From assembly GCF_023055435.1 (NCBI RefSeq), contig NW_025964223.1, positions 49,662,001 to 49,726,000 on the forward strand: DNA of 64,000 nt. Reading direction: 5' to 3'. Positions 2,308 to 61,498 of this stretch are shown here, piece by piece. The position numbers were made by a program, and so were the translations under genes. Numbering within the stretch: position 1 is the stretch's first letter; every line of letters starts with the position of its first letter. This stretch comes from Haliotis rufescens (Eukaryota). The notes beneath the pieces were generated by a model that made no database searches, was not told the origin of the DNA, and worked only from the letters and a program-made list of their open reading frames with translations.

Positions 2308-2332
2308 TAGCTAAAGTTTGCCGACAAGCATT

Positions 2333-14481: not shown

Positions 14482-16454
14482 TTTTGCTGTGCGATTCCCA
14501 CTTTTTTTCCTTTTTCGACCATAAGGTGCACTTGTCTCATTCACATCTGATGTAATCATACACTTTTATTTCCTTGTAAATGGCCCCACTCATGCATGTC
14601 TGCTCAAAGACATAGCTGCCAGCCATGTATTCTTACATACCTTTACAGAAAGGAATTTTCCACTATACATGTGATCATATTCAGTTGTCAGTTCACCCAA
14701 CTCGTCAACTATTCTGAAGGCATGTACGTCCTTTTCGCCACATAAAGGTGTTTGCGTGCACCGATAATTGACTATTTTACTTACTTTCTTACTTTCAAAG
14801 CATGAATATATAATATATACATGTAAAATTATAATGTTGTTCGTGTTAAGTCTCGGCTCACATCTCTTTGCCTACACAGATAAGAAAAGGAGATAGAGTT
14901 AGATCGTACAGAGCGCCTGTCAATAGGAGTTCACTGGCTTGCTGCTGGAAAATGTATTTTGAAAGCTGTGAGCAAGCTGATCACTGTTGACACGCTTTAA
15001 AAATATGAAAAAAAAACGACGCGACTGTGTGATAAACCAGCTATTTTATATTCCCCGTTCTAGCTGATCGCTGGCAAACGTACTTTAGACTTATTAGAAA
15101 GTATTTCCATACATTTCTCTCGCCATACAACAGGTAGATGTGACATGTTGCAGGTAGGGGGCTAGGCGAAACGCACACGACCAAGGGCGCACAACTCTTG
15201 GCGCTCTATTTGAAAAGTCGTGCACAGGCGAGGCGTGTGTCGGTAAAACACCCCGTGGATGTCTGGCCTTTATCGCCGTTTTACACCTTTGAACACAACG
15301 TGCATGTGCAGCTACACACATAGGAAGTCTGCACTCAGGATATTATATATATCAACGACACTAATCGCCTCACTTTCCAACATACACCCATTTGGGGGGT
15401 TAATAAACAAGCATAACAACAGTCATTAGTGTGAAGACACACTACCCCACCCCCCCCATCCCCCCCCACACACACAATAAAATCCCTGACATACCTTTAT
15501 CAACATCACCTATGTGTGTTATGTGCGTGGTGGGTGTTGCTGCCACGTTATCTCTGTTATCACGAGAACCTGCACTTTATTACTGCTAATATACATATTT
15601 ATTGTTTTGTTATCAGTGTTTTCAAGTTTTCTTTTGGGGTATTTGGATGGCCCTGAAAAGGGCCTTTGGACCACAGAAATGTGGAGCGAAGGCGTGACAA
15701 TGAGAGCTTAAGCCTTCTTTGGCTTGACTGCCTTCTTCTTGGGGGTCTTGACCTTCTTGGGTTTGGCTGCTGCCTTCTTGGGTGTCTTCGCCTTCTTGGG
15801 CTTGGCTGCAGCCTTCACCTTCTTTGGTGACTTAGCGGCCTTCTTAGCGGCTGTTTTGGGTTTCTTGGCAGCAGCTGGCTTCTTGACTTTCTTGGGGGAT
15901 TTGGCAGCCTTCTTTGGTTTGGCAGCTGCCTTAGCCTTCTTGGGTTTTTCGTCTTTCTTTGCCTCGCCAAGACGGAATGATCCAGCGGCTCCAGTTCCCT
16001 TTGATTGCTTCAGTGCGCCGTTCTTGACTCCATTTTTCAAAGCAGTCTTGATGCGAGCATTGATGGCCACCTGGTTGTCACCAACCTTGTAGTTGGCCAA
16101 GATGTATTTCAGAACAGCCTGTCGGGAAGAACCACCCCTCTCCTTCAGGGTTGAAATAGCTTTCTTGATCATCTCCAAATAGGTAGGTTACTTACTTACT
16201 TATATTAGGAGATTTTACGTGCGCTTTCCGACTGGAGCGTATTTCGCACACGGGCCAGGCCGGGCCATTTAGTGGTATAAAAGTGGTAGCGAGAGGAGTG
16301 CAACCAGTGGAGGGGGGTTTAGTGGTTGCTTATATAAAGTTTTGAAATTTTGAGATTTGGAATACATGCCTTGGGGGAGTGGTTGGGACTAAGGGAGTGT
16401 GTGGGGGTGAGTTGATGTTTTTTGGATGTTTAGTGTTGGTGGTTTAGTGAAGTT

Positions 16455-19400
16455 TTAAATACGGTTAATTAGTTCTGTTTTGGTTAGGTAAATGCCTAGG
16501 GCTTTGAAGTTTTCTATTTTATTTTGGGGGTTAAGGATTGCTTCTAAGGTAAGAGCGTTATTTGGATTTAGGTTGGTTTGTAATGTTGTACGTTGTGTGA
16601 GGTAGTGGGTGCAATGTAGTAGTACGTGGTCTATTGTTTCTGGGTGAGTGCAGTGTGGGCACTTCCCGTTTGCGTGTTTTTTTAGTTTTAGAAGGTGGTT
16701 ATTTAGTTTGGTGTGTCCTGTTTGGAGTTTGGTGATTATTCTATCGATTTTTTTGGAGGGATGGAGGATTTTTGGTTTGGTGAGGGGTTTTTTGAGGGTT
16801 TTTAGGATTTGGGTTTTTGTGTTTTGATAGAGGTTATGCCATTTTTGGGTGATTTTACGTTTGTTTATACTTTTGATTTCTGCTTTAGATATTGGTAGCT
16901 TAAGGCTTATGTCTGGTATTTTTAGGGATTGTTTTGCGGCTCTGTCTGCGTTTTCATTCCCGTAAATTCCTACGTGAGCTGGTATCCAGATAAGTTGTAT
17001 GTTTTTGCCTGCTTCTGTTAGTTTGTTTACGCTTTTGAGAATTTGGTTTATTAATTTGGGGCGGTTTTTGGTGTTTTTGTTTTGGAGGGCCTGAAGTCCG
17101 CTTAGTGAGTCTGAGAGTATTAAGATTTTTTTTTGGTTTTTGGTGTGATGGCTGTGGAGCGCCGTGGCGATACCCATGAGCTCTGCGGTGAATATAGATT
17201 GGTTGTTTGGGAGTCGGAAGGATTGAGTATTTTTGACTGGTTGGGCTATATGGACTCCGAAACCTGTGTGATTTGTGATCGGATCAGCGGATCCGTCTGT
17301 GTATATGTGACACCAATTTGGCCATTTTTGATGGATGTAAGCTAGTGATGTGCTTTTAGCTAGGTTTGGGTCGGTTTGTTTGTTTATTGTGTTGGCTAGG
17401 GATGTGTCTATTTTGGGGATTTTAAGTTTTGGGGTGAATACGTTTGATTGTTTGCAGTTTTGTTGTTGGTTTCCTATTTGGTGTTCGTTATGGTAGTTTA
17501 TTATTCGTTGGGATATTGGGGTGAGTAGAGGGTGTTTTCTAGTTAGTGCCTGGTTTTGGGGACGTATGTTTTGGTTTAGCATGTTTTGGAGAAGGGGGTT
17601 TGATTGAGATGCTGCCCAGAAGTTTAGTGTTAAGTGTTGTCTACGTAAATTTAGTGGCATTTCTCCTGTAAGGGCCTGAAGTGATGTGAGGGAGGTGCCA
17701 TGTTGAGTACGTGTTACTAGTTTGAGGGCTTGATATTGTATTGAATCTAGTTTTTTGGTTAGGGTTTCGTTTAGGGTATCGTATATGGCACAGCCGTAGT
17801 CTAGTTTAGATCTGATTAGGGATGTGTAGAGGCTGAGGAGGGTATCTTTAGAGGCTCCCCAGTTGGAGCCGGTTAGGCATCTTAGTGTGTTTAGATCTTT
17901 GCTACATCTGGTGGTTAGGTTTTGGACGTGAGCATCCCAGGAGAGATGCTCGTCGAAGATTAGACCTAGGAATTTAGTTTGCTTTTGAAATATGATTGGT
18001 TTATTGTTTAGTTTGAGGAGAGGGGAGGCCCGTCTCATATTTTTGTGTTTGAATACTATTCCTGTCGTTTTTTCGGAGTTTAGGGAGAAGCCCCATTTGT
18101 CTGCCCAGTTTTGTATTTTGTTTAGGGATTTTTGTAGTAAGTCCTGAGATGTTAAGATACTTTTGGAGCGGATCCATAGGGCTCCGTCATCCGCAAATTT
18201 TGAGGTGTTTATTTTGGGGGATAAGCCATCAAATAGGTCGTTTATCATTATGTTAAAAAGTGTGGGGCTAAGAATGCTGCCTTGAGGGGTGCCGTTTTCC
18301 AGGGGACACTGCTCTGACAAGGCCTGGTCTATACCCACTGTAATTTTGCGGTTTTGGAGGAAGCTTTGGATGTAGTTTACGATTTGACCTTTAAGTCCTA
18401 TTTTTTTAAGTTTTTGGATTAATCCGTTATGCCATACCATATCAAAGGCTTTAGAGAAGTCCAGAAAGATGCCTGTTGTGTATTGTTTGTTTAGTTGACC
18501 GGTTTTAATATCCTGTTCGAGACGAGCGAGGTTATCTAGGGTGGAGCGGCCAGGAGTGAAACCGCTTTGATCTGAGTTTATTATGTTATTTTGAGATAGA
18601 TAGTGTTGAAGTCTATTTTTGGCCATGGATTCCATTACTTTGCAAAGGTTGGAAGTAAGAGAGATTGGTCTATAAGAGTTAGCTTGGTTGGTTGGTTTAC
18701 CGGGTTTGGGAATAGGTATGATTAGCGCCTCTTTCCAGGGGGTTGGTACATGGCCTTTTATGTAGATTAGGTTATATAGTTTGAGTAGTGTCTGGAGTAA
18801 TTTAGGGGGGAGTTTTTTTAATATTTGGTAGGAGGTTAGGTCTAGTCCTGGGGCTGTTCCCTTTTTCCTATTTTGGAGTACATAATTGAGTTCTTCTATT
18901 GTGTACGGCTGATTTATTTCTAGGGCGTCATTATTTGGGTCTTGGCTAGGTTTGGTTTCTGTTTTAAGTTTTAGTTGGAATTTGTCACTGAAATTGTTAT
19001 TACTGCTTGTGGCCGAAAAGTGGTTTGCTAGGTTGTCTGCTTTTTCGCTAGGGGTTGTTGAGTTATTTATGTTAGGTGTCTTTTGGTGACGTTTTAGGCC
19101 TCTAACGGCGTGGATTTTACGCCAGACCGTTCTGGCGTCTGTACGGTTGTTTAATCCCTCACAGAATTTTTTCCAGTCTCTAGTTTTTGCTATTTTAACT
19201 AGGTTTTGTACCTGGTGGTTTAGTTGGTGAGCTACTGGTATGTGGTTATGGTCGCGTTTGGCTTTGTTGAAGGCTGTTTTACGTTTTTGTCTAGTTAGTT
19301 CTATTTCCTCGTTCCACCAGGGTACAGAGGGCCTACCCGATTTATTGGGTTTTTTAAAGGGGATTGCGCTTTTGGCTGCGTTTATTATGAAGTCCGTTAG

Positions 19401-23727: not shown

Positions 23728-24952
23728 TTTTGCTGTGCGATTCCCACTTTTTTTCCTTTTTCGACCATAAGGTGCACTTGCCTCATTCACATCTGATGTA
23801 ATCATACACTTTTATTTCCTTGTAAATGGCCCCACTCATGCATGTCTGCTCAAAGACATAGCTGCCAGCCATGTATTCTTACATACCTTTACAGAAAGGA
23901 ATTTTCCACTATACATGTGATCATATTCAGTTGTCAGTTCACCCAACTCGTCAACTATTCTGAAGGCATGTACGTCCTTTTCGCCACATAAAGGTGTTTG
24001 CGTGCACCGATAATTGACTATTTTACTTACTTTCTTACTTTCAAAGCATGAATATATAATATATACATGTAAAATTATAATGTTGTTCGTGTTAAGTCTC
24101 GGCTCACATCTCTTTGCCTACACAGATAAGAAAAGGAGAAAGAGTTAGATCGTACAGAGCGCCTGTCAATAGGAGTTCACTGGCTTGCTGCTGGAAAATG
24201 TATTTTGAAAGCTGTGAGCAAGCTGATCACTGTTGACACGCTTTAAAAATATGAAAAAAAAACGACGCGACTGTGTGATAAACCAGCTATTTTATGTTCC
24301 CCGTTCTAGCTGATCGCTGGCAAACGTACTTTAGACTTATTAGAAAGTATTTCCATACATTTCTCTCGCCATACAACAGGTAGATGTGACATGTTGCAGG
24401 TAGGGGGCTAGGCGAAACGCACACGACCAAGGGCGCACAACTCTTGGCGCTCTATTTGAAAAGTCGTGCACAGGCGAGGCGTGTGTCGGTAAAACACCCC
24501 GTGGATGTCTGGCCTTTATCGCCGTTTTACACCTTTGAACACAACGTGCATGTGCAGCTACACACATAGGAAGTCTGCACTCAGGATATTATATATATCA
24601 ACGACACTAATCGCCTCACTTTCCAACATACACCCATTTGGGGGGTTAATAAACAAGCATAACAACAGTCATTAGTGTGAAGACACACTACCCCACCCCC
24701 CCATCCCCCCCCACACACACAATAAAATCCCTGACATACCTTTATCAACATCACCTATGTGTGTTATGTGCGTGGTGGGTGTTGCTGCCACGTTATCTCT
24801 GTTATCACGAGAACCTGCACTTTATTACTGCTAATATACATATTTATTGTTTTGTTATCAGTGTTTTCAAGTTTTCTTTTGGGGTATTTGGATGGCCCTG
24901 AAAAGGGCCTTTGGACCACAGAAATGTGGAGCGAAGGCGTGACAATGAGAGC

Positions 24953-31531: not shown

Positions 31532-32630
31532 AGTGGTAAGTTTGAGTGGTAAAAATTCACGTCAGCTACGAGAGAAGCACAGAGAGCGAATGACACTTCC
31601 CCACAGACAGCCCGGCTGATACTCCGGAGGCGCGGACGTCGGAGGAGACACCCTGCTTGTTGTGGCTGATAGCTGCACGCTTACAAGCGCGTGTGCTTTT
31701 TCGTGTATTTGTATCCGAATAATCACTTCTTAATCAAGGAAAGTTTCAATTTCAACAATACAGTTAGGTAGTAAAAACATTTGGCTACATTTCGGTTACA
31801 ATAGCAACGCTCACGGGTGAAGTTCAAAGCCACACGTGCTGTTTCCAATGAAGCGACCCAGTCTAAAATGTAGACATCGCTACTTTCAAAAGCACATTTT
31901 TAGCCTTGAGACTCAAGTTTATGCATTTTAAACGTTGCCTGTCAATTCTCAATATATCTAACTATGAAAGTAAAACACAACACTCATCAGTATTGCCTAT
32001 GATAAGCTAGAACAAGCTTTCAAACAACGACAATGAAGCACGTTTTTCTGACGACTTCGCCATTTTGCAACAGAAAACATTTGACACTATATTTCTGGAG
32101 ACATAATTTTGGTCACTTCAATTAGAGTTGAAACTAACTTTGTCATAACAAGTAAGTAACGGGGATTTTACTTTCAGGAAAACAGTCTAGTAAGACGAGG
32201 ATCTCGGGACACAAGCAGCTAGGGCGCGAAGCCCCGAACAGTAACATATATACATTGGTGTTTAGATCACTCGATCGGTCGTCACAGATTAAGTCTTTTT
32301 GCCTGTCTTAATAGCACGATATTAGTAGGGGTCTTCGTCGTTTGGATGTTAATTTAACCAGAACAATATAGGCTACCATCCATCAACGAAAAGTGAATGT
32401 TTCAGACGAAAGGCCGGATCGAGTGAGCGAGTGTGCCGGGCCTCGTGTTAAACAGTGATCACATGTTTTTAGAACGGCTAGATTTTAATCCCTGTAAATA
32501 TACATCATAAATCAACAAACACAACATGTCTACTGAACCCGCTGAAAACGCGAGCATGCTGTTTTCATGGCAATGTCTGTTTACCAATGTGTGGTGGCTA
32601 TATGTAGCTAAAGTTTGCCGACAAGCATTG

Positions 32631-35600
32631 CATACCAGTAGCTCACCAACTAAACCACCAGGTACAAAACCTAGTTAAAATAGCAAAAACTAGAGACTGG
32701 AAAAAATTCTGTGAGGGATTAAACAACCGTACAGACGCCAGAACGGTCTGGCGTAAAATCCACGCCGTTAGAGGCCTAAAACGTCACCAAAAGACACCTA
32801 ACATAAATAACTCAACAACCCCTAGCGAAAAAGCAGACAACCTAGCAAACCACTTTTCGGCCACAAGCAGTAATAACAATTTCAGTGACAAATTCCAACT
32901 AAAACTTAAAACAGAAACCAAACCTAGCCAAGACCCAAATAATGACGCCCTAGAAATAAATCAGCCGTACACAATAGAAGAACTCAATTATGTACTCCAA
33001 AATAGGAAAAAGGGAACAGCCCCAGGACTAGACCTAACCTCCTACCAAATATTAAAAAAACTCCCCCCTAAATTACTCCAGACACTACTCAAACTATATA
33101 ACCTAATCTACATAAAAGGCCATGTACCAACCCCCTGGAAAGAGGCGCTAATCATACCTATTCCCAAACCCGGTAAACCAACCAACCAAGCTAACTCTTA
33201 TAGACCAATCTCTCTTACTTCCAACCTTTGCAAAGTAATGGAATCCATGGCCAAAAATAGACTTCAACACTATCTATCTCAAAATAACATAATAAACTCA
33301 GATCAAAGCGGTTTCACTCCTGGCCGCTCCACCCTAGATAACCTCGCTCGTCTCGAACAGGATATTAAAACCGGTCAACTAAACAAACAATACACAACAG
33401 GCATCTTTCTGGACTTCTCTAAAGCCTTTGATATGGTATGGCATAACGGATTAATCCAAAAACTTAAAAAAATAGGACTTAAAGGTCAAATCGTAAACTA
33501 CATCCAAAGCTTCCTCCAAAACCGCAAAATTACAGTGGGTATAGACCAGGCCTTGTCAGAGCAGTGTCCCCTGGAAAACGGCACCCCTCAAGGCAGCATT
33601 CTTAGCCCCACACTTTTTAACATAATGATAAACGACCTATTTGATGGCTTATCCCCCAAAATAAACACCTCAAAATTTGCGGATGACGGAGCCCTATGGA
33701 TCCGCTCCAAAAGTATCTTAACATCTCAGGACTTACTACAAAAATCCCTAAACAAAATACAAAACTGGGCAGACAAATGGGGCTTCTCCCTAAACTCCGA
33801 AAAAACGACAGGAATAGTATTCAAACACAAAAATATGAGACGGGCCTCCCCTCTCCTCAAACTAAACAATAAACCAATCATATTTCAAAAGCAAACTAAA
33901 TTCCTAGGTCTAATCTTCGACGAGCATCTCTCCTGGGATGCTCACGTCCAAAACCTAACCACCAGATGTAACAAAGATCTAAACACACTAAGATGCCTAA
34001 CCGGCTCCAACTGGGGAGCCTCTAAAGATACCCTCCTCAGCCTCTACACATCCCTAATCAGATCTAAACTAGACTACGGCTGTGCCATATACGATACCCT
34101 AAACGAAACCCTAACCAAAAAACTAGATTCAATACAATATCAAGCCCTCAAACTAGTAACACGTACTCAACATGGCACCTCCCTCACATCACTTCAGGCC
34201 CTTACAGGAGAAATGCCACTAAATTTACGTAGACAACACTTAACACTAAACTTCTGGGCAGCATCTCAATCAAACCCCCTTCTCCAAAACATGCTAAACC
34301 AAAACATACGTCCCCAAAACCAGGCACTAACTAGAAAACACCCTCTACTCACCCCAATATCCCAACGAATAATAAACTACCATAACGAACACCAAATAGG
34401 AAACCAACAACAAAACTGCAAACAATCAAACGTATTCACCCCAAAACTTAAAATCCCCAAAATAGACACATCCCTAGCCAACACAATAAACAAACAAACC
34501 GACCCAAACCTAGCTAAAAGCACATCACTAGCTTACATCCATCAAAAATGGCCAAATTGGTGTCACATATACACAGACGGATCCGCTGATCCGATCACAA
34601 ATCACACAGGTTTCGGAGTCCATATAGCCCAACCAGTCAAAAATACTCAATCCTTCCGACTCCCAAACAACCAATCTATATTCACCGCAGAGCTCATGGG
34701 TATCGCCACGGCGCTCCACAGCCATCACACCAAAAACCAAAAAAAAATCTTAATACTCTCAGACTCACTAAGCGGACTTCAGGCCCTCCAAAACAAAAAC
34801 ACCAAAAACCGCCCCAAATTAATAAACCAAATTCTCAAAAGCGTAAACAAACTAACAGAGGCAGGCAAAAACATACAACTTATCTGGATACCAGCTCACG
34901 TAGGAATTTACGGGAATGAAAACGCAGACAGAGCCGCAAAACAATCCCTAAAAATACCAGACATAAGCCTTAAGCTACCAATATCTAAAGCAGAAATCAA
35001 AAGTATAAACAAACGTAAAATCACCCAAAAATGGCATAACCTCTATCAAAACACAAAAACCCAAATCCTAAAAACCCTCAAAAAACCCCTCACCAAACCA
35101 AAAATCCTCCATCCCTCCAAAAAAATCGATAGAATAATCACCAAACTCCAAACAGGACACACCAAACTAAATAACCACCTTCTAAAACTAAAAAAACACG
35201 CAAACGGGAAGTGCCCACACTGCACTCACCCAGAAACAATAGACCACGTACTACTACATTGCACCCACTACCTCACACAACGTACAACATTACAAACCAA
35301 CCTAAATCCAAATAACGCTCTTACCTTAGAAGCAATCCTTAACCCCCAAAATAAAATAGAAAACTTCAAAGCCCTAGGCATTTACCTAACCAAAACAGAA
35401 CTAATTAACCGTATTTAAAACTTCACTAAACCACCAACACTAAACATCCAAAAAACATCAACTCACCCCCACACACTCCCTTAGTCCCAACCACTCCCCC
35501 AAGGCATGTATTCCAAATCTCAAAATTTCAAAACTTTATATAAGCAACCACTAAACCCCCCTCCTTGGTTGCACTCCTCTCGCTACCACTTTTATACCAC

Positions 35601-35684
35601 TAAATGGCCCGGCCGGGCCCGTGTGCGAAATACGCTCCAGTCGGAAAGCGCACGTAAAATCTCCTAATATAAGTAAGTAAGTAA
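32631..35684 (+). mobile_element. 5'-truncated LINE copy (3,054 bp, subfamily A) inserted at the 5S 5' end
   Basis: Matches the full element from ~19242 to its 3' end; 11-bp TSD GACAAGCATTG at 32620-32630 and 35685-35695; 3054+11+3007 equals the observed spacing of 6072. Confidence 0.97.
33238..35418 (+). pseudogene. Truncated ORF2 (RT, RNase H, CCHC; no endonuclease), frame still open
   Basis: 726 aa from an internal Met, near-identical to the C-terminal part of full ORF2. Confidence 0.85.
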
Positions 35685-35694
35685 GACAAGCATT

Positions 35695-42804: not shown

Positions 42805-42853
<49 letters not shown>

Positions 42854-49543: not shown

Positions 49544-51398
49544 TTACTTACTTACTTATATTAGGAGATTTTACGTGCGCTTTCCGACTGGAGCGTATTT
49601 CGCACACGGGCCCGGCCGGGCCACTTAGTGGTATAAAAGTGGTAGCGAGAGGAGTGCAACCAAGGAGGGGGGTTTAGTGGTTGCTTATATAAAGTTTTGA
49701 AATTTTGAGATTTGGAATACATGCCTTGGGGGAGAGGTTGGGACTAAGGGAGTGTGTGGGGGTGAGTTGATGTTTTTTGGATGTTTAGTGTTGGTGGTTT
49801 AGTGAAGTTTTAAATACGGTTAATTAGTTCTGTTTTGGTTAGGTAACTGCCTAGGGCTTTGAAGTTTTCTATTTTATTTTGGGGGTTAAGGATTGCTTCT
49901 AAGGTAAGAGCGTTATTTGGATTTAGGTTGGTTTGTAATGTTGTACGTTGTGTGAGGTAGTGGGTGCAATGTAGTAGTACGTGGTCTATTGTTTCTGGGT
50001 GAGTGCAGTGTGGGCACTTCCCGTTTGCGTGTTTTTTTAATTTTAGAAGGTGGTTATTTAGTTTGGTGTGTCCTGTTTGGAGTTTGGTGATTATTCTATC
50101 GATTTTTTTGGAGGGATGGAGGATTTTTGGTTTGGTGAGGGGTTTTTTGAGGGTTTTTAGGATTTGGGTTTTTGTGTTTTGATAGAGGTTATGCCATTTT
50201 TGGGTGATTTTACGTTTGTTTATACTTTTGATTTCTGCTTTAGATATTGGTAGCTTAAGGCTTATGTCTGGTATTTTTAGGGATTGTTTTGCGGCTCTGT
50301 CTGCGTTTTCATTCCCGTAAATTCCTACGTGAGCTGGTATCCAGATAAGTTGTATGTTTTTGCCTGCCTCTGTTAGTTTGTTTACGCTTTTGAGAATTTG
50401 GTTTATTAATTTTGGGCGGTTTTTGGTGTTTTTGTTTTGGAGGGCCTGAAGTCCGCTTAGTGAGTCTGAGAGTATTAAGATTTTTTTTTGGTTTTTGGTG
50501 TGATGGCTGTGGAGCGCCGTGGCGATACCCATGAGCTCTGCGGTGAATATAGATTGGTTGTTTGGGAGTCGGAAGGATTGAGTATTTTTGACTGGTTGGG
50601 CTATATGGACTCCGAAACCTGTGTGATTTGTGATCGGATCAGCGGATCCGTCTGTGTATATGTGACACCAATTTGGCCATTTTTGATGGATGTAAGCTAG
50701 TGATGTGCTTTTAGCTAGGTTTGGGTCGGTTTGTTTGTTTATTATGTTGGCTAGGGATGTGTCTATTTTGGGGATTTTAAGTTTTGGGGTGAATACGTTT
50801 GATTGTTTGCAGTTTTGTTGTTGGTTTCCTATTTGGTGTTCGTTATGGTAGTTTATTATTCGTTGGGATATTGGGGTGAGTAGAGGGTGTTTTCTAGTTA
50901 GTGCCTGGTTTTGGGGACGTATGTTTTGGTTTAGCATGTTTTGGAGAAGGGGGTTTGATTGAGATGCTGCCCAGAAGTTTAGTGTTAAGTGTTGTCTACG
51001 TAAATTTAGTGGCATTTCTCCTGTAAGGGCCTGAAGTGATGTGAGGGAGGTGCCATGTTGAGTACGTGTTACTAGTTTGAGGGCTTGATATTGTATTGAA
51101 TCTAGTTTTTTGGTTAGGGTTTCGTTTAGGGTATCGTATATGGCACAGCCGTAGTCTAGTTTAGATCTGATTAGGGATGTGTAGAGGCTGAGGAGGGTAT
51201 CTTTAGAGGCTCCCCAGTTGGAGCCGGTTAGGCATCTTAGTGTGTTTAGATCTTTGCTACATCTGGTGGTTAGGTTTTGGACGTGAGCATCCCAGGAGAG
51301 ATGCTCGTCGAAGATTAGACCTAGGAATTTAGTTTGCTTTTGAAATATGATTGGTTTATTGTTTAGTTTGAGGAGAGGGGAGGCCCGTCTCATATTTT
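49544..51398 (-). mobile_element. 5'-truncated LINE copy (1,855 bp, subfamily A) in H1, no clear TSD
   Basis: Tail begins at 49544; 5' junction at 51398/51399; net insertion 1855 bp. Confidence 0.96.
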
Positions 51399-51531
51399 TC
51401 TCCTTCAGGGTTGAAATAGCTTTCTTGATCATCTCCAAATAGGTAGGATGTGCGGCAGCCTTCTTAGGCTTGGCAGCAGCCTTCTTCTTGGGAGTCTTGA
51501 CAACAGCGGGGGCAGCAGCAGCATCAGCCAT
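49810..51531 (-). CDS. Chimeric ORF: H1 residues 1-44 fused in frame to the LINE ORF2 C-terminus (RT thumb/tether, RNase H, CCHC), 573 aa
   Basis: Junction ...STLKE|KNMRRASP; no internal stops; keeps YTDGS, AEL, SDS, WIPAHVGIYGNENAD. Expression is not shown by sequence. Confidence 0.75.
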   Translation of the reverse strand: MADAAAAPAVVKTPKKKAAAKPKKAAAHPTYLEMIKKAISTLKEKNMRRASPLLKLNNKPIIFQKQTKFLGLIFDEHLSWDAHVQNLTTRCSKDLNTLRCLTGSNWGASKDTLLSLYTSLIRSKLDYGCAIYDTLNETLTKKLDSIQYQALKLVTRTQHGTSLTSLQALTGEMPLNLRRQHLTLNFWAASQSNPLLQNMLNQNIRPQNQALTRKHPLLTPISQRIINYHNEHQIGNQQQNCKQSNVFTPKLKIPKIDTSLANIINKQTDPNLAKSTSLAYIHQKWPNWCHIYTDGSADPITNHTGFGVHIAQPVKNTQSFRLPNNQSIFTAELMGIATALHSHHTKNQKKILILSDSLSGLQALQNKNTKNRPKLINQILKSVNKLTEAGKNIQLIWIPAHVGIYGNENADRAAKQSLKIPDISLKLPISKAEIKSINKRKITQKWHNLYQNTKTQILKTLKKPLTKPKILHPSKKIDRIITKLQTGHTKLNNHLLKLKKHANGKCPHCTHPETIDHVLLHCTHYLTQRTTLQTNLNPNNALTLEAILNPQNKIENFKALGSYLTKTELINRI

Positions 51532-52629
51532 AGTGGTAAGTTTGAGTGGTAAAAATTCACGTCAGCTACGAGAGAAGCACAGAGAGCGAATGACACTTCC
51601 CCACAGACAGCCCGGCTGATACTCCGGAGGCGCGGACGTCGGAGGAGACACCCTGCTTGTTGTGGCTGATAGCTGCACGCTTACAAGCGCGTGTGCTTTT
51701 TCGTGTATTTGTATCCGAATAATCACTTCTTAATCAAGGAAAGTTTCAATTTCAACAATACAGTTAGGTAGTAAAAACATTTGGCTACATTTCGGTTACA
51801 ATAGCAACGCTCACGGGTGAAGTTCAAAGCCACACGTGCTGTTTCCAATGAAGCGACCCAGTCTAAAATGTAGACATCGCTACTTTCAAAAGCACATTTT
51901 TAGCCTTGAGACTCAAGTTTATGCATTTTAAACGTTGCCTGTCAATTCTCAATATATCTAACTATGAAAGTAAAACACAACACTCATCAGTATTGCCTAT
52001 GATAAGCTAGAACAAGCTTTCAAACAACGACAATGAAGCACGTTTTTCTGACGACTTCGCCATTTTGCAACAGAAAACATTTGACACTATATTTCTGGAG
52101 ACATAATTTTGGTCACTTCAATTAGAGTTGAAACTAACTTTGTCATAACAAGTAAGTAACGGGGATTTTACTTTCAGGAAAACAGTCTAGTAAGACGAGG
52201 ATCTCGGGACACAAGCAGCTAGGGCGCGAAGCCCCGAACAGTAACATATATACATTGGTGTTTAGATCACTCGATCGGTCGTCACAGATTAAGTCTTTTT
52301 GCCTGTCTTAATAGCACGATATTAGTAGGGGTCTTCGTCGTTTGGATGTTAATTTTACCAGAACAATATAGGCTACCATCCATCAACGAAAAGTGAATGT
52401 TTCAGACGAAAGGCCGGATCGAGTGAGCGAGTGTGCCGGGCCTCGTGTTAAACAGTGATCACATGTTTTTAGAACGGCTAGATTTTAATCCCTGTAAATA
52501 TACATCATAAATCAACAAACACAACATGTCTACTGAACCCGCTGAAAACGCGAGCATGCTGTTTTCATGGCAATGTCTGTTTACCAATGTGTGGTGGCTA
52601 TATGTAGCTAAAGTTTGCCGACAAGCATT

Positions 52630-52749
52630 GTCTACGGCCATACCACGTTGAAAACACCGGTTCTCGTCCGATCACCGAAGTAAAGCAACGTCGGGCCCGG
52701 AGAGTACTTGGATGGGTGACCGCCTGGGAACACCGGGTGCAGTAGACAT
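52630..52749 (+). rRNA. 5S: 5S rRNA (T53A in box A)
   Basis: GAAGTAAAGC in place of GAAGTTAAGC at 52682. Confidence 0.95.
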
Positions 52750-53974
52750 TTTTGCTGTGCGATTCCCACTTTTTTTCCTTTTTCGACCATAAGGTGCACT
52801 TGCCTCATTCACATCTGATGTAATCATACACTTTTATTTCCTTGTAAATGGCCCCACTCATGCATGTCTGCTCAAAGACATAGCTGCCAGCCATGTATTC
52901 TTACATACCTTTACAGAAAGGAATTTTCCACTATACATGTGATCATATTCAGTTGTCAGTTCACCCAACTCGTCAACTATTCTGAAGGCATGTACGTCCT
53001 TTTCGCCACATAAAGGTGTTTGCGTGCACCGATAATTGACTATTTTACTTACTTTCTTACTTTCAAAGCATGAATATATAATATATACATGTAAAATTAT
53101 AATGTTGTTCGTGTTAAGTCTCGGCTCACATCTCTTTGCCTACACAGATAAGAAAAGGAGAAAGAGTTAGATCGTACAGAGCGCCTGTCAATAGGAGTTC
53201 ACTGGCTTGCTGCTGGAAAATGTATTTTGAAAGCTGTGAGCAAGCTGATCACTGTTGACACGCTTTAAAAATATGAAAAAAAAACGACGCGACTGTGTGA
53301 TAAACCAGCTATTTTATGTTCCCCGTTCTAGCTGATCGCTGGCAAACGTACTTTAGACTTATTAGAAAGTATTTCCATACATTTCTCTCGCCATACAACA
53401 GGTAGATGTGACATGTTGCAGGTAGGGGGCTAGGCGAAACGCACACGACCAAGGGCGCACAACTCTTGGCGCTCTATTTGAAAAGTCGTGCACAGGCGAG
53501 GCGTGTGTCGGTAAAACACCCCGTGGATGTCTGGCCTTTATCGCCGTTTTACACCTTTGAACACAACGTGCATGTGCAGCTACACACATAGGAAGTCTGC
53601 ACTCAGGATATTATATATATCAACGACACTAATCGCCTCACTTTCCAACATACACCCATTTGGGGGGTTAATAAACAAGCATAACAACAGTCATTAGTGT
53701 GAAGACACACTACCCCACCCCCCCATCCCCCCCCACACACACAATAAAATCCCTGACATACCTTTATCAACATCACCTATGTGTGTTATGTGCGTGGTGG
53801 GTGTTGCTGCCACGTTATCTCTGTTATCACGAGAACCTGCACTTTATTACTGCTAATATACATATTTATTGTTTTGTTATCAGTGTTTTCAAGTTTTCTT
53901 TTGGGGTATTTGGATGGCCCTGAAAAGGGCCTTTGGACCACAGAAATGTGGAGCGAAGGCGTGACAATGAGAGC

Positions 53975-54405
53975 TTAAGCCTTCTTTGGCTTGACTGCCT
54001 TCTTCTTGGGGGTCTTGACCTTCTTGGGTTTGGCTGCTGCCTTCTTGGGTGTCTTCGCCTTCTTGGGCTTGGCTGCAGCCTTCACCTTCTTTGGTGACTT
54101 AGCGGCCTTCTTAGCGGCTGTTTTGGGTTTCTTGGCAGCAGCTGGCTTCTTGACTTTCTTGGGGGATTTGGCAGCCTTCTTTGGTTTGGCAGCTGCCTTA
54201 GCCTTCTTGGGTTTTTCGTCTTTCTTTGCCTCGCCAAGACGGAATGATCCAGCGGCTCCAGTTCCCTTTGATTGCTTCAGTGCGCCGTTCTTGACTCCAT
54301 TTTTCAAAGCAGTCTTGATGCGAGCATTGATGGCCACCTGGTTGTCACCAACCTTGTAGTTGGCCAAGATGTATTTCAGAACAGCCTGTCGGGAAGAACC
54401 ACCCC
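53975..54405 (-). pseudogene. H1: H1 3' remnant (duplicate of 49113..49543)
   Basis: Same junction, offset 4862 bp. Confidence 0.95.
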
Positions 54406-56260
54406 TTACTTACTTACTTATATTAGGAGATTTTACGTGCGCTTTCCGACTGGAGCGTATTTCGCACACGGGCCCGGCCGGGCCACTTAGTGGTATAAAA
54501 GTGGTAGCGAGAGGAGTGCAACCAAGGAGGGGGGTTTAGTGGTTGCTTATATAAAGTTTTGAAATTTTGAGATTTGGAATACATGCCTTGGGGGAGTGGT
54601 TGGGACTAAGGGAGTGTGTGGGGGTGAGTTGATGTTTTTTGGATGTTTAGTGTTGGTGGTTTAGTGAAGTTTTAAATACGGTTAATTAGTTCTGTTTTGG
54701 TTAGGTAACTGCCTAGGGCTTTGAAGTTTTCTATTTTATTTTGGGGGTTAAGGATTGCTTCTAAGGTAAGAGCGTTATTTGGATTTAGGTTGGTTTGTAA
54801 TGTTGTACGTTGTGTGAGGTAGTGGGTGCAATGTAGTAGTACGTGGTCTATTGTTTCTGGGTGAGTGCAGTGTGGGCACTTCCCGTTTGCGTGTTTTTTT
54901 AATTTTAGAAGGTGGTTATTTAGTTTGGTGTGTCCTGTTTGGAGTTTGGTGATTATTCTATCGATTTTTTTGGAGGGATGGAGGATTTTTGGTTTGGTGA
55001 GGGGTTTTTTGAGGGTTTTTAGGATTTGGGTTTTTGTGTTTTGATAGAGGTTATGCCATTTTTGGGTGATTTTACGTTTGTTTATACTTTTGATTTCTGC
55101 TTTAGATATTGGTAGCTTAAGGCTTATGTCTGGTATTTTTAGGGATTGTTTTGCGGCTCTGTCTGCGTTTTCATTCCCGTAAATTCCTACGTGAGCTGGT
55201 ATCCAGATAAGTTGTATGTTTTTGCCTGCCTCTGTTAGTTTGTTTACGCTTTTGAGAATTTGGTTTATTAATTTTGGGCGGTTTTTGGTGTTTTTGTTTT
55301 GGAGGGCCTGAAGTCCGCTTAGTGAGTCTGAGAGTATTAAGATTTTTTTTTGGTTTTTGGTGTGATGGCTGTGGAGCGCCGTGGCGATACCCATGAGCTC
55401 TGCGGTGAATATAGATTGGTTGTTTGGGAGTCGGAAGGATTGAGTATTTTTGACTGGTTGGGCTATATGGACTCCGAAACCTGTGTGATTTGTGATCGGA
55501 TCAGCGGATCCGTCTGTGTATATGTGACACCAATTTGGCCATTTTTGATGGATGTAAGCTAGTGATGTGCTTTTAGCTAGGTTTGGGTCGGTTTGTTTGT
55601 TTATTATGTTGGCTAGGGATGTGTCTATTTTGGGGATTTTAAGTTTTGGGGTGAATACGTTTGATTGTTTGCAGTTTTGTTGTTGGTTTCCTATTTGGTG
55701 TTCGTTATGGTAGTTTATTATTCGTTGGGATATTGGGGTGAGTAGAGGGTGTTTTCTAGTTAGTGCCTGGTTTTGGGGACGTATGTTTTGGTTTAGCATG
55801 TTTTGGAGAAGGGGGTTTGATTGAGATGCTGCCCAGAAGTTTAGTGTTAAGTGTTGTCTACGTAAATTTAGTGGCATTTCTCCTGTAAGGGCCTGAAGTG
55901 ATGTGAGGGAGGTGCCATGTTGAGTACGTGTTACTAGTTTGAGGGCTTGATATTGTATTGAATCTAGTTTTTTGGTTAGGGTTTCGTTTAGGGTATCGTA
56001 TATGGCACAGCCGTAGTCTAGTTTAGATCTGATTAGGGATGTGTAGAGGCTGAGGAGGGTATCTTTAGAGGCTCCCCAGTTGGAGCCGGTTAGGCATCTT
56101 AGTGTGTTTAGATCTTTGCTACATCTGGTGGTTAGGTTTTGGACGTGAGCATCCCAGGAGAGATGCTCGTCGAAGATTAGACCTAGGAATTTAGTTTGCT
56201 TTTGAAATATGATTGGTTTATTGTTTAGTTTGAGGAGAGGGGAGGCCCGTCTCATATTTT
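54406..56260 (-). mobile_element. Duplicate of the 1,855-bp LINE insertion in the next H1
   Basis: Identical junctions; one difference seen (49735 A vs 54597 T). Confidence 0.96.
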
Positions 56261-56393
56261 TCTCCTTCAGGGTTGAAATAGCTTTCTTGATCATCTCCAA
56301 ATAGGTAGGATGTGCGGCAGCCTTCTTAGGCTTGGCAGCAGCCTTCTTCTTGGGAGTCTTGACAACAGCGGGGGCAGCAGCAGCATCAGCCAT
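54672..56393 (-). CDS. Second copy of the H1(1-44)/ORF2 RNase H chimeric ORF, 573 aa
   Basis: Same translation as 49810..51531. Confidence 0.75.
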   Translation of the reverse strand: MADAAAAPAVVKTPKKKAAAKPKKAAAHPTYLEMIKKAISTLKEKNMRRASPLLKLNNKPIIFQKQTKFLGLIFDEHLSWDAHVQNLTTRCSKDLNTLRCLTGSNWGASKDTLLSLYTSLIRSKLDYGCAIYDTLNETLTKKLDSIQYQALKLVTRTQHGTSLTSLQALTGEMPLNLRRQHLTLNFWAASQSNPLLQNMLNQNIRPQNQALTRKHPLLTPISQRIINYHNEHQIGNQQQNCKQSNVFTPKLKIPKIDTSLANIINKQTDPNLAKSTSLAYIHQKWPNWCHIYTDGSADPITNHTGFGVHIAQPVKNTQSFRLPNNQSIFTAELMGIATALHSHHTKNQKKILILSDSLSGLQALQNKNTKNRPKLINQILKSVNKLTEAGKNIQLIWIPAHVGIYGNENADRAAKQSLKIPDISLKLPISKAEIKSINKRKITQKWHNLYQNTKTQILKTLKKPLTKPKILHPSKKIDRIITKLQTGHTKLNNHLLKLKKHANGKCPHCTHPETIDHVLLHCTHYLTQRTTLQTNLNPNNALTLEAILNPQNKIENFKALGSYLTKTELINRI

Positions 56394-57265
56394 AGTGGTA
56401 AGTTTGAGTGGTAAAAATTCACGTCAGCTACGAGAGAAGCACAGAGAGCGAATGACACTTCCCCACAGACAGCCCGGCTGATACTCCGGAGGCGCGGACG
56501 TCGGAGGAGACACCCTGCTTGTTGTGGCTGATAGCTGCACGCTTACAAGCGCGTGTGCTTTTTCGTGTATTTGTATCCGAATAATGGAACGAGGAAATAG
56601 AACAAACTAGGAAAAAACGTAAATCAGCCTTCAATAAAGCCAAACGCGACCATAATCACATACCGGTAGCTCACCAACTAAACCACCAAGTCCAAACACT
56701 AGTCAAAATAGCAAAAACCAGAGACTGGAAAAAATTCTGCGAGGGACTAAATAATCGCACAGATGCCAGAACAGTCTGGCGCAAAATCCACGCCGTCAGA
56801 GGCTTAAAAAAACAAAAAAAAACGCCTAACATAAACAACTCAAATACTCCCAGCGAAAAAGCAAATAACCTAGCAAACCACTTTTCGGCAATAAGTAGCA
56901 ATAACAACTTCAGCCATAAATTCAAACAAAAACTCCAGGCAGAAACCAAACCTATCCAAGAACCAAACAATAACAACCTAGAAATAAACCAACCGTACAC
57001 AATAGAAGAACTAAACCACGTACTTCAAAATAGGAAAAAAGGAACAGCCCCAGGTCTAGACTTAACTTCCTACCAAATAATCAAAAAACTCCCGCCCAAA
57101 CTACTCCAGTCACTACTAAAACTCTATAATCTAATTTATCTAAACGGCCAGGTTCCAAATCCTTGGAAAGAAGCTCTCATTATCCCCATCCCTAAACCCG
57201 GTAAACCAGCCAACCAAGCCAACTCCTATAGGCCAATATCGCTCACCTCTAACCTATGCAAAGTA

Positions 57266-59446
57266 ATGGAATCCATGGCAAAAAATAGACTCCAACACTA
57301 CTTAACCCAAAATAATATAATTAATTCAGACCAAAGCGGTTTTACTCCCGGCCGCTCAACCCTAGATAACCTAGCACGTCTAGAACAGGATATTAAAACA
57401 GGACAACTAAATAAACAATATACTACAGGCATCTTTCTGGACTTTTCCAAAGCCTTCGATATGGTATGGCACAACGGGCTAATCCAAAAACTTAAAAAAA
57501 TAGGACTAAAAGGTCAAATCATAAACTACATCCAAAGTTTCCTTAAAAACCGTAAAATCACAGTGGGTATAGACCAGGCCTTGTCGGACCAGTGTCCACT
57601 AGAAAACGGCACACCCCAAGGCAGCATTCTTAGCCCCACACTATTCAACATAATGATAAACGATCTCTTTGATGGCTTATCCCCTAAAATAAATACTTCC
57701 AAATTTGCAGATGACGGAGCCCTCTGGATCCGTTCTAAAAGTATTTTAACATCCCAGGACTTACTCCAGAAATCACTAAACAAAATACAACAATGGGCCG
57801 ATAAATGGGGGTTCTCCCTAAACACTGAAAAAACCACAGGAATAGTATTTAAACATAAAAATATGACACGGGCCACCCCCACCCTTAAACTAAACAACAA
57901 ACCAATCCAATTTCAGAAACAAACTAAATTCTTAGGACTAATATTCGACGAACATCTCTCCTGGGATGCCCACGTCCAAAACCTAACCACAAGATGTAGC
58001 AAAGATTTAAACACACTAAGATGTCTAACCGGCTCCAACTGGGGTGCCTCTAAAGATACCCTCCTCAGCCTCTATACATCCCTAATCAGATCCAAACTAG
58101 ACTACGGCTGTGCCATATACGATACCTTAAACGAAACATTAACCAAAAAACTAGATTCAATCCAATACCAAGCCCTCAAATTAGTCACACGTACCCAACA
58201 AGGCACCTCCCTTACGTCACTTCAGGCCCTCACAGGAGAAATGCCGCTAAACCTACGTAGGCAACACTTAACACTAAACTTCTGGGCAGCTTCTCAATCA
58301 AACCCTCTTCTACAAAATCTCCTAAACCTAAACATACGTCCCAAAAACCAGGCACTAACTAGGAAACACCCTCTACTCACTCCAATTTCCCAACGTATTA
58401 TAAACTACCGCAACGAACACCAAATAGGGAACCTACAACAAAACTGCAAAAAATCCAACGTATTCACCCCAAAACTTAAAATCCCCAAAATAGACACTTC
58501 CCTAGCCAAAACAATAAACAAACAAACTGACCCTAACATAGCTAAATCCACCTCACTAGCCTACATACATCAAAACTGGCCAAATTGGTGCCACATCTAC
58601 ACAGATGGATCTGCTGATCCATTCACAAATCACACAGGTTTCGGAGTCCACATAGCCCAACCAATAAGAAATACGCAATCCTTCCGACTCCCAAACAACA
58701 AATCTATCTTCACCGCAGAACTCATGGGTATCGCCACGGCCCTCCACAGCCATCACACTAAAAACCAAAATAAAATCCTAATACTCTCAGACTCACTAAG
58801 TGGACTCCAGGCCCTCCAAAGCAAAAACACCAAAAACCGCCCCAAATTAATAAACCAAATTCTCAAAAGTATAGATAAATTAACAGAGGCAGGCAAAAAC
58901 ATAGTACTCACCTGGATACCAGCCCACGTAGGAATATACGGTAATGAGAACGCCGACCAAGCCGCTAAACAGTCCCTAAAAATACCAGAGATAAGCCTTA
59001 AGCTACCAATAAGTAAATCAGAGATCAAAAGTATCAACAAACACAAAATCACCCAAAAATGGCATAGCCTCTATCAAAACACAAACACCCAAATCATAAA
59101 AGTCCTCAAAAAACCCCTTACCAAACCAAAAATCCTCCATCCATCCAAAAAAATCGATAGAATAATCACCAAACTCCAAACAGGACACACCAAACTAAAT
59201 AACCATCTTCTAAAACTAAAAAAACACGCAAACGGGAAGTGTCCACACTGCACTCACCCAGAAACCATAGACCACGTACTACTACATTGCACCCACTACC
59301 TCATCCAACGTACAACATTACAAACCAACCTAAATCCAAATAAAGCTCTTACCTTAGAAGCAATCCTCAACCCCCAAAATAAAATAGAAAACTTCAAAGC
59401 CCTAGGCATTTACCTAACCAAAACAGACCTAATTAATCGTATCTAA
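57266..59446 (+). pseudogene. Truncated ORF2 of subfamily B (RT, RNase H, CCHC), frame open
   Basis: 726 aa, colinear with 33238..35418 with mostly conservative substitutions. Confidence 0.85.
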
Positions 59447-59599
59447 AAATTCACTAAACCACCAACACTAAACATCTAAAAACAACAACTCACCCCCACA
59501 CACTCCCTTAGTCCCAACCACTCCCCCAAGGCATGTCTTCCAAATCTCAAAATTTCAAAACTTTATATAAGCAACCACTAAACCCCCCTCCTTCCCTTT

Positions 59600-61252
59600 T
59601 GTCATTATGTGGGCTTTTAGTGTTTGGAGATTACGATTTTGGTTTGGTTTTTGGTTTATAGTCCTGCGATTGCTAGGTTGTAACTATCGTAGAATTCTTG
59701 GTAGGTTTGGGTAGTTAGATTTAGTCTATGTGCTACCTGGTGTAGGTTAGTGGCTTTAAGGTCTGGTTTGATTTCTTTAAGCATGTATACTAGTAGGAGT
59801 GTGAAGCTATTTAGTTTGGTGGTTAAAGTTTCGGGTTCAGGTTGAGTTTGGGGTTTGCGTTTGCGATTTTTCAGGGTTTTGGGGGCTGAAAATGTTTTAT
59901 CATTTATGTTTTGATCAGTTGTGGTTTGGGAGTCATCTAGGTTAATTAGATTGGTTTCCTCACTATCCATGGGAGTTGTGTGGGTGTTTGGTTGTGTTGG
60001 AGTAGGTGTACTGGGTATTTCAATGGGTTTAGTAATGTTTAGTTTTTCGTGTGTTGCTTGCTCGTGTGTGGTTGTTGTTGCCCTGGTGGCTGTAGATTGT
60101 ATGGTGTTGGGGTGAGATATGGTAGGTTTAGTGAGTTTTGGTTTAGGTGCGGGTGTGGATGCGGCGACTGGTTTGGGTGTGGCGAATGTTGGCGGGTAGT
60201 GTTGGGTTTGGGTGTTTGTGGCTGATGCTTGTGGTGTTGGCATGAGGACGCCGTCGTACGGGCTCTGTAGGTGTGGTTGGTTGTTTGGTTGTGGTGTGGG
60301 TAGTAGGGGTGTTCTTGGATGCTGTGTCAGTTTTCGTGTTTGTAGTTTGGCCGAGTCGATGTTTATGTGTCGGTTGGCCTGTTGGGTGAGTGTGTGTTTG
60401 TGGGGGCATTTGTTGGATAGTGAGGAGTGGGTGTTTGTTTTGCAGTGAATGCACCAGGGGGCGCATGGCCCTAGACATTGAGGTTGAGCGCAGTTTCTAC
60501 ATTTAGTTTTTTGATATTTACATCCGTTAGCGGTGTGATTGTATTGGAGGCAGTTTGTGCACTGTTTGACTTGTTTGATATAGGGTTTAACTTCTAATTT
60601 AGATGACGCTCCGAAGGAGATGTGTTTAGGGGCTTCTGGATACGTTTCTGATTTTTGGAAGTTTATGATGACTATCGGTGTGTTGGTTATTCTACCGTTC
60701 CTATTTGATGTAATTCTTTTAGTGCTGGTTATTTTAGGTTGGGGGAAGGAGCCTGTGTTTAGATTTGCTTCGTTACTGTAGAATTCTAGGTCCTCCTCTG
60801 ACTCTCTAGGGTTTACTCTAATTACTCCTCTAGTGTATAGTTGCCAGTTTGGGGTTTGGTGGGTTACTGTGTATTGAAATATTTCCGTTATTTTTTTGGC
60901 TGCGTTAAGTGATTGTTGGTCCGGAAAGATGATCTGAAATCCTTTGTGGGCTTCCCTGATTTTATCGAAGAGTATTTGTTGTTTTTTAAAGAATGATCCT
61001 ACTTTATTGGCGGAGAGTACCTTACTTAGGATGTTTATGGGGCCAGCCGCGCAGAAGTAGAGGGCGAAGGTGACTATAGATGCGGGGGTGGAAGGTGATG
61101 CAGGTGTTGTGTTTGAAGCATTTAGCTTCCGTTTCTTTGGGTTTGTTGTGGTTGCAGGCGAATCCGGAGTTTTGGTGGGAGAAGCGACTGTGGTTTGCTT
61201 TCCGAATTCGTGCGGGATGAGGGTTTCAGGTGTCCGATCGGAGGTGTTGTGG
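59600..61252 (-). mobile_element. Inverted LINE fragment: ORF1 from about codon 24 through the first two codons of ORF2
   Basis: Colinear with 20211-21863 at a constant offset of 39389; two substitutions noticed; no tail or TSD. Confidence 0.93.
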
Positions 61253-61378
61253 TTGCACTCTTCTCGCTTCCCCTTTTATATCACTAAATGGCCCGGCCGG
61301 GCCCGTGTGCGAAATACGCTCCAGTCGGAAAGCGCACGTAAAATCCCCTAATATAAGTAAGTAAGTAAGACAAGCATT

Positions 61379-61498
61379 GTCTACGGCCATACCACGTTGA
61401 AAATACCGGTTCTCGTCCGATCACCGAAGTTAAGCAACGTCGGGCCCGGAGAGTACTTGGATGGGTGACCGCCTGGGAACACCGGGTGCAGTAGACAT
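61379..61498 (+). rRNA. 5S: 5S rRNA (C26T variant), 10 bp downstream of a LINE tail
   Basis: GAAAATACCGG at 61404; otherwise as 2333..2452. Confidence 0.97.

Follow-up and report, generated by a model that had tools for sequence, protein, structure and literature searches.

The window analysed here is a 64,000-nucleotide stretch of the Haliotis rufescens genome (RefSeq assembly GCF_023055435.1, contig NW_025964223.1, positions 49,662,001 to 49,726,000 of the forward strand), and it is filled by a 3007-bp tandem unit into which copies of a long interspersed nuclear element (LINE) have inserted. Self-comparison, Rfam and open reading frames (ORFs) place a histone H1 gene on the minus strand at 671-1234 of the unit and a 5S ribosomal RNA (rRNA) gene on the plus strand at 2333-2451; the two are divergent and read away from one another. 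By motif count the array comprises 104 5S copies over ~565 kb within the 600 kb that we examined around the window. Sequencing reads mapped the start of 5S and not that of H1. Small-RNA reads begin at 2333, which confirms this base as 5S +1, and for H1 we take the cap-like motif TCATTC, at the end of the family X duplication listed in Table 1, to mark the start.

The window contains five LINE copies (A to E, Table 1), which represent four events. The target-site duplication (TSD) of the full-length insertion A, CCTACCTATT, corresponds to unit positions 1141-1150. Insertions C and D both join the unit at 1101/1102, in codon 45 of H1 and without a TSD, and since they differ at only 1 of ~1850 bases they are a single event that was copied along with the unit. 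Insertion B has the TSD GACAAGCATT(G) at 5S -10, and insertion E, which shows 142-147 differences from A-D in ~1850 bases, has a 3' junction identical to that of B. An original prediction, made from the letters of the window, had described four independent insertions at gene 5' regions, and their positions, strands and target letters were all recovered: two events on the H1 strand about 50 bp apart in the first 45 codons (codons 29 and 45; unit 1150 and 1101/1102) and two at 5S -10 on the 5S strand (B and E, with the same 3' junction). Two features had escaped it. On its 5' side E joins at unit 1426, where ~900 bp of spacer are missing and there is no TSD, and the 3' untranslated region (UTR) of E holds an inverted piece of ORF1 that is likely the remnant of a further insertion. 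The motif TATATAAG in the element's own 3' UTR is itself a target, and another element (L285) carries an F78 copy at the corresponding position.

Across the whole array, four 3'-end motifs recovered 34 LINE tails, 25 of which join the unit directly; subtraction of 3 segmental duplicates left 22 events. Outside this count stand the 9 of 34 tails that join another element or non-unit DNA, one rearranged piece without a 3' end, and three unrelated insertions. Seven events lie at 5S -9/-10 in the sense orientation, two each from subfamily T, subfamily C and family F80 and one from family Y, which has 55% reverse transcriptase (RT) identity to A and a (TATC)n tail and uses the same 5S site as the others. 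Nine lie at the 5' end of H1, all of them sense (9/9), at 1306 (three times), 1297, 1279, 1263, 1238, 1150 and 1102; family X has 8 exact-tail copies genome-wide, and 4 of them are at H1 1306. Three antisense events upstream of 5S, one at 2326 and two at 2288 (the latter from 2 families), fall outside the pattern that had been described for the window. The remaining events are in the spacer, two at 459/460 on the plus strand and one at 294 on the minus strand, and the claim that no 3' junction falls elsewhere in the spacer thus holds for the window and fails for the array (3/22). Two intervals, the H1 5' end and the stretch just upstream of 5S, make up 8.7% of the unit and contain 19/22 events (p=9e-18, with interval edges set after the data were seen), and 16/19 of these are sense (p=0.002). 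With the window's own events left out, the same intervals hold 15/18 events (p=8e-14), of which 12/15 are sense (p=0.018). When all array insertions were mapped, as the original prediction had proposed, positions were therefore not uniform and orientation was not random.

Alignment of the empty sites on the first nick brought TATATGTA to -21..-14 at 5S, TATATATA to the same place at site 294, and CAATAAAA at site 459. The sites at 2323/2324 (+) and 2288 (-) are mirror images of each other about the near-palindromic TATA of 5S. A census of TATA-like words in the unit predicted 15 nicks, of which 4 are observed (2323, 2288, 460 and 294); the word list included both 5S octamers and an AATAAAA variant that had already been seen, so that this census is descriptive only.

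To follow the element beyond the array, an exact 28-base 3'-end pattern was searched in the 1.33-Gb assembly, and all 155 copies found (96 + 59) were parsed: 46 in small-gene arrays, 32 in or beside other LINEs, 50 at dispersed, non-redundant sites where the TSD was clean, and 27 excluded either as duplicates or because a clean TSD was lacking. All 14 copies flanked by the small nuclear RNA (snRNA) gene U1 join at one base, -10, in the sense orientation (14/14), and the TSD, where present, ends at U1 +1. They have 13 distinct 5' junctions, read by eye, and lie on 3 contigs, two of which may be unplaced parts of one array. One further copy lies at -10 of U4, with a TSD that ends at U4 +1. Neither U1 nor U4 has a TATA at this register, and U1's own perfect TATAAAAA at -111 was used by none of the 14 copies; this suggests that the register is set by the initiation complex and not by naked sequence. 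Full-length copies start 0-4 bases from U1 or 5S +1, and microhomology between tail and target at these two genes amounts to 1-3 nt. In the 379-bp array of a U1-derived gene, which carries 14 copies, 9/10 events lie at the same offset as in U1 from a 15-base upstream motif that the two genes share, and the sequence between this motif and the insertion site differs from that of U1. Upstream of a transfer RNA (tRNA) gene, tRNA-Val, lies one 92%-identical copy, with TATAAG starting 20 bp before the junction. Among the other arrays that the original prediction had wanted searched, the snRNA genes (U1 14/14, U4 1) and this one tRNA-Val gene thus carry the element; a pattern for H4/H2A gave 0 among the (TAAG)n-tailed families, and tRNA genes were rarely used. 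The proposal that insertion is targeted near the start sites of both RNA polymerase II (Pol II) and Pol III genes, mostly co-oriented with them, was borne out by the events at 5S, U1, U4 and H1.

Several features of these small-gene loci were recorded in passing. In the U1-derived gene (L149-L160; G000:C46:19.44-19.64 Mb and 20.65 Mb; unit e.g. L158:6735-7120), an upstream motif and first 10 bases that resemble those of U1 are joined to the 3' half and the downstream box of U1. An Rfam search with its unit gave no meaningful match, the absence of small-RNA reads from the unit carries no weight, and an interpretation as a spliced leader was rejected on the ground that the unit aligns to U1's 3' half. 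L181 and L194 further showed U4 and U6 together in a tandem array with a unit length of ~1477 bp, and an array of U5. At L297 and L303, sense copies stand ~8 and 22 bases before heads that resemble a tRNA-derived short interspersed nuclear element, at which ARAGORN called no tRNA.

The dispersed copies gave a strong sequence signal. TATAWA starts 17-24 bp before the earliest nick at 20/50 dispersed sites, against a background of 1.9% in 93 control windows at other offsets of the same flanks (highest 8%), and TATAAA occurs there 11 times in sense and once in antisense. The window of -24..-17 had been chosen on these 50 sites and was then applied unchanged to two sister families, in which 14/22 sites have TATAWA within it (0.9% background), with TATAAA 9 vs 0. 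The sister sample consisted of 60 loci, the first 30 of 1553 and of 400 matches; for 18 the retrieved sequence did not include the 5' end, a further 18 yielded no TSD under the rule applied, and 24 were clean, 22 of them non-redundant. In both sets pooled, the distance from the start of the TATA to the end of the TSD is 31 or 32 bp in 23/34 cases, which is the usual distance from TATA to transcription start. The duplication is 10-12 bp long in 70/105 cases. No consensus runs across the TSDs at U1, 5S, U4, H1 and the 50 dispersed sites, and a shared cut-site consensus was rejected for that reason. The observation that the targets lack a consensus was accordingly right for the cut site itself. 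The further claim that targeting does not depend on sequence was wrong at the dispersed sites, where a TATA at a fixed upstream distance is the strongest signal, and the suggestion that transcription or chromatin guides insertion survives for start sites and not as a broad chromatin preference, since the register is base-precise (nick at -9/-10, duplication ending at +1). Base-precise, oriented insertion at start positions across promoter classes is a stronger effect than the one originally proposed; it was replicated out of sample and has echoes in relatives from other organisms.

Mini copies of ~45-80 bases make up 29/155 of the genome-wide set; most are cut just after a GC hairpin in the 3' UTR, at element position 6162/6163 of A (window ~16188-16253), and many have clean TSDs. 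The two sister families behave alike. Stalling of the RT, or a processed RNA, could possibly account for them. LINEs nest within one another at G000:C1:42.3-42.45 Mb, C35:22.5 Mb, C581 and C586, with repeated antisense insertions near position 4750 of family Y, and seven same-orientation copies (L170, L171, L130, L100, L185, L198 and L263) lie within ~15 bases of one spot in a dispersed repeat.

Relatives in other organisms were sought in metagenome contigs, where 17 loci were found, 5 of them with a tail and a downstream flank. In two of these 5 the flank is a recognised gene, entered in sense: L314 (45% identity) stops 6-7 bases short of U5, and L320 (32% identity) ends ~60 bases before a core-histone frame with a stop, next to a histone 5' UTR. 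By its motif we take this frame to be H2B-like. L314 begins with an apparent U1 5' fragment, seen by eye and not by Rfam. Both loci are single short contigs and may be chimeric.

Table 1. Features of the tandem unit and of the insertions in the window (positions are those of the window).
Feature	Position	Strand	Evidence or remark
Histone H1 gene, unit 1	671..1234	-	ORF; PF00538; histone stem-loop 587-632; recurs every 3007 bp
5S rRNA gene	2333..2451	+	Rfam; small-RNA reads start at 2333 (24 molecules, run X19)
Family X target in other units	1296..1306	-	TSD 1296-1306, ends at TCATTC cap-like motif; H1 start inferred
Near-palindromic TATA-like element TATATGTA	2302..2309	.	5S -31..-24
5S -10..+1 target	2323..2333	+	Used by 7 array events, which belong to 4 families or subfamilies
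Spacer site with AATAAAAT at 439	439..469	+	Target 459-469; 2 events elsewhere in the array
Spacer site with TATATATA starting at 315	285..315	-	3' junction 294; 1 event elsewhere in the array
Insertion A, full-length 6228-bp I-group LINE	16188..22415	-	In H1 codon 29; 5' CAGTCG, (TAAG)n tail
TSD of A, CCTACCTATT, downstream copy	16178..16187	-	Perfect, 10 bp; upstream copy 22416-22425
ORF2 of A, 1253 amino acids	16455..20216	-	Pfam; translation; apurinic/apyrimidinic (AP) endonuclease, RT, RNase H, C-terminal CCHC-like knuckle
ORF1 of A, 554 amino acids	20267..21931	-	Three cysteine-histidine knuckle-like motifs, read by eye
Insertion B, 5'-truncated	32631..35684	+	At 5S -10; TSD 32620-32630 / 35685-35694
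Insertion C, 5'-truncated	49544..51399	-	H1 codon 45; no TSD
Insertion D	54406..56261	-	Same event as C, copied into the unit that follows
Insertion E, second subfamily (90% identity)	56586..61368	+	3' junction at 5S -10; 5' junction at unit 1426
Inverted 1.65-kb stretch of ORF1, A subfamily	59594..61250	-	Nested in the 3' UTR of E; absent from the original prediction
TATATAAG in the element's own 3' UTR	59564..59571	+	30 bp before the nested piece

Further observations concern the array itself. Abundant sense-strand small RNAs in run X19 cover the H1 coding region at 889-1006, with starts at 920, 967 and 1006. A single contig of run X1 joins antisense element sequence (~58190, -) to the H1 5' UTR (unit 1269); it has look-alikes of a GT donor and an AG acceptor and is a possible spliced chimeric RNA, its status as RNA being a guess. 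Another contig of that run joins the 5' end of the element at unit 1443 (+), facing away from H1, in an insertion that is not in the assembly, and the 5' junction of E at unit 1426 lies near it. The three unrelated insertions are of 8571 bp and 2740 bp, both inside 5S genes, and of 5135 bp at unit 2804/2638 (G000:C445:49398833-49407405, 49474039-49476780 and 49493516-49498652); all lie in the older, more disrupted left part of the array.

The element belongs to the I group of LINEs, which are known for a separate ORF1 with cysteine-histidine knuckles, a short tandem-repeat tail and a TSD, and all three features are present, the knuckles as read by eye; a Pfam search with ORF1 gave no match. 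In ORF2 the endonuclease (PF14529/PF03372, residues 8-219) is followed by the RT (PF00078, 502-753) and an RNase H (PF00075, 970-1097), a domain that I-group clades carry according to PMC4640811. Named relatives of ORF2 come from molluscs, fish and a sea spider. The clade is likely Nimb, judged from domain order and host range. Nimb elements likewise have two ORFs, an RNase H and a short-repeat tail, and the mollusc and fish relatives match the host range given in PMC4758252. A 30-row RT tree, built without labelled Nimb, I, Loa or Ingi references, grouped the families with Haliotis proteins and left fish proteins outside. No target preference of Nimb was found in the literature searched, and relatives in a PDB search were limited to L1, R2, TRAS1 and RNase H. 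Families X, Y and Z show 52-55% RT identity to A, which indicates that the targeting habit is older than one family.

LINEs insert by target-primed reverse transcription, and the choice of target is usually ascribed to an endonuclease that reads the cut site. The data described above are better accommodated by a host landmark. The insertions are co-directional, they place a 10-11 bp duplication at about -10..+1 of start sites, and the machinery probably docks on an initiation complex that contains TATA-binding protein (TBP). Such a landmark must be polar, and TATA boxes, snRNA promoters that lack a TATA, and 5S must all possess it; a TBP complex fits all of these, and docking on it is favoured for this reason. 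What the promoters of Pol II mRNA genes, Pol II snRNA genes and Pol III genes have in common is TBP, accompanied by a TFIIB-family partner and located at -31..-24 in each. In the mechanism that we propose, the RNA-protein particle of the element would dock on this complex. By target-primed reverse transcription, a duplication of this kind in a sense element means that the first nick falls on the template strand near -9/-10 and serves as primer for copying of the RNA from its (TAAG)n tail; joining of the second strand near +1 then lets the first base of a full-length element replace the host +1. Since the 10-11 bp duplication ends at +1, the 5' end of the element falls on the host start site. 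Binding of TBP to the near-palindromic 5S TATA in either direction would yield the mirror site, and cryptic TATA boxes would be marked too. The element would thereby acquire a working promoter that points at its 5' end, with multicopy genes as tolerated sinks. A complex prediction of the mollusc TBP core with the endonuclease, the ORF1 core and the C-terminal part of ORF2, run without alignments, scored 0.00 and weighs neither way.

A number of observations weigh against docking at a fixed distance. Six of the nine H1 events (1297, 1279, 1263, 1238, 1150 and 1102) lie downstream of the presumed start, and the window's two coding-region events, at codons 29 and 45, are among these exceptions to the precise register. 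One sense copy lies ~16 bases inside a U5 gene, the event at 2326 is antisense (5S -7), and in the U1-derived array one event, present as 5 identical copies, joins near +1 and not at -9. A fixed tether leaves the downstream H1 events, the U5 event and the antisense event at 2326 unexplained. At the dispersed sites, strict TATAWA is absent from the window at 30/50 + 8/22 (38/72), only 5 of the 27 set-aside copies have it there, and the initiator signal after dispersed TATAs is weak (CA at best 7/34 vs 7.6%), so that these sites are not shown to be promoters. Patterns for U2 -10, U6 -10 and the H4/H2A 5' UTR, targets of unknown copy number, gave 0 matches among the (TAAG)n-tailed families, the U2 and histone motifs having had no positive control; U6 gave none in spite of its perfect TATA. 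Use of tRNA genes was rare: ARAGORN found 0 in 215 downstream flanks, and a tRNA A-box pattern gave 8 matches against 3 for a control, of which one place only is a tRNA gene.

We considered whether the substrate might instead be the melted transcription bubble, with the endonuclease cutting the template strand at the upstream border of a polymerase bubble, whether open or paused, and the second strand joined at the downstream border. The region opened at initiation is about -10..+1, which is the stretch that the duplication covers, and a bubble would explain both the U5 +16 event and the way in which the H1 events, all of them sense, are scattered across the gene's first 200 bases; for H1 it does so better than docking. 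The weak initiator signal at dispersed TATA sites speaks against it, U6, tRNA and core histone genes are used rarely or not at all despite their high transcription, and 10-11 bp may be just the enzyme's own stagger, which makes this account unlikely in our judgement. If, on the other hand, a protein of the element read a TATA-like AT-rich word 14-21 bp upstream of the nick, with tail-target microhomology setting the base and the snRNA genes a separate matter, then the strong polar TATA signal at dispersed sites that show no sign of genes would follow directly, and the short microhomology at U1 and 5S would have a role. RTE LINEs, for which such reading has been proposed, provide a precedent: their cut site is loose apart from a motif that precedes it by a constant distance (PMC6007223, PMC13295347). 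Theirs is a T stretch ~10 bp upstream, for which the available parts of these two sources report no promoter link, whereas here a polar TATA lies 14-21 bp upstream and TATA-less starts are used as well. Direct reading does not account for the use of the register without a TATA at U1 (14/14) and U4 (1/1) while the TATAAAAA of U1 is ignored, nor for family Y, which reaches the same 5S site with a different tail, and we think it distinctly improbable.

It could also be argued that insertion is near-random and that the pattern arose from selection and from the spread of few events by unequal crossing-over or gene conversion. Copies have indeed been duplicated with their units, as in C and D, the three duplicate junctions in 25, and the five identical copies of the U1-derived array. 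Spread of one event by array turnover was nevertheless rejected, because the events at one base differ in their 5' ends and families; insertions that separate a gene from its upstream region would be expected to be selected against, and single-copy dispersed sites carry the TATA register. The chance that such turnover produced the pattern is, in our estimate, very small. Docking on a TBP-containing complex remains the reading that we prefer.

Comparison with known systems places the element outside each of the established types. Ty3 of Saccharomyces cerevisiae, a long terminal repeat (LTR) element, likewise inserts at the starts of Pol III genes including tRNA, U6 and 5S, and TBP and Brf1 suffice for its targeting in vitro (PMC6673722, PMC6101501). 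Ty3 differs in that its integrase leaves a duplication of 5 bp and in that only Pol III genes are described as its targets; the LINE also uses Pol II snRNA genes, H1 and dispersed TATA boxes, and tRNA genes rarely. Closer in machinery are TRE5-A of Dictyostelium discoideum and NLTR-A of D. purpureum, non-LTR elements with an AP endonuclease that are placed by host initiation factors. In the review PMC5911963, these are L1-type amoebal elements confined to Pol III genes, with 5S genes also among the targets; the ORF1 protein of TRE5-A binds TBP, Brf1 and Bdp1; TRE5 elements insert 40-54 bp upstream in the opposite orientation, and NLTR-A inserts 2-6 bp upstream of the mature tRNA. The present element, by contrast, is an animal I-group element that inserts in sense, at -10..+1, and at Pol II as well as Pol III promoters. 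It shares with Ty3 and TRE5 a fixed distance to a Pol III start (7 events at 5S -9/-10 and one at tRNA-Val) and not the restriction to Pol III with tRNA genes as main target, given U1, U4, H1 and the dispersed TATA sites. Being an I-group LINE that is not limited to Pol III genes, it is of neither the Ty3 nor the TRE5/NLTR-A type. One-base accumulation in multicopy small-RNA genes is also known from LINEs of the Tx1/R1 clades (Keno in U2, Tx1 families at U5 and 5S), from Utopia and from Dada DNA transposons. Each of these reads one conserved target sequence, in Keno, Utopia and Dada inside the gene (PMC4640811, PMC4494074, PMC3706591). One conserved cut-site sequence was not found here; in contrast to those of R1 and Tx1 elements, the targets of one family are unrelated in sequence and have in common only where they lie with respect to a start. 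Start-site or TATA-register targeting by an I-group LINE was not found in titles and abstract starts of the open full-text literature, and an earlier mention is possible in subscription papers or Repbase Reports, which lay outside that scope.

Host-factor tethering is known from yeast LTR elements and amoebal LINEs, and the base-precise cases described in PMC6673722, PMC6101501 and PMC5911963 are at Pol III genes only. If docking is true, such tethering extends to a new clade and to Pol II mRNA, Pol II snRNA and Pol III promoters. A wider proposition is that a whole branch of animal I-group LINEs docks on TBP and writes its own 5' end onto the host +1, that its insertions form a base-precise and oriented fossil map of germline initiation complexes, and that it is the first LINE machinery to target the promoters of several polymerase classes by position; for this we see the balance as even. 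Biochemistry is approachable, since intact full-length copies are nearly identical and 37/155 copies keep the full-length 5' end, and alignment of TSDs with a look 20 bp upstream is a cheap test in any mollusc or fish genome. The targeting might be put to use in mapping or addressing start sites, and, if true, would explain the pile-up of such LINEs in snRNA, 5S and histone arrays and predict promoter capture by the element.

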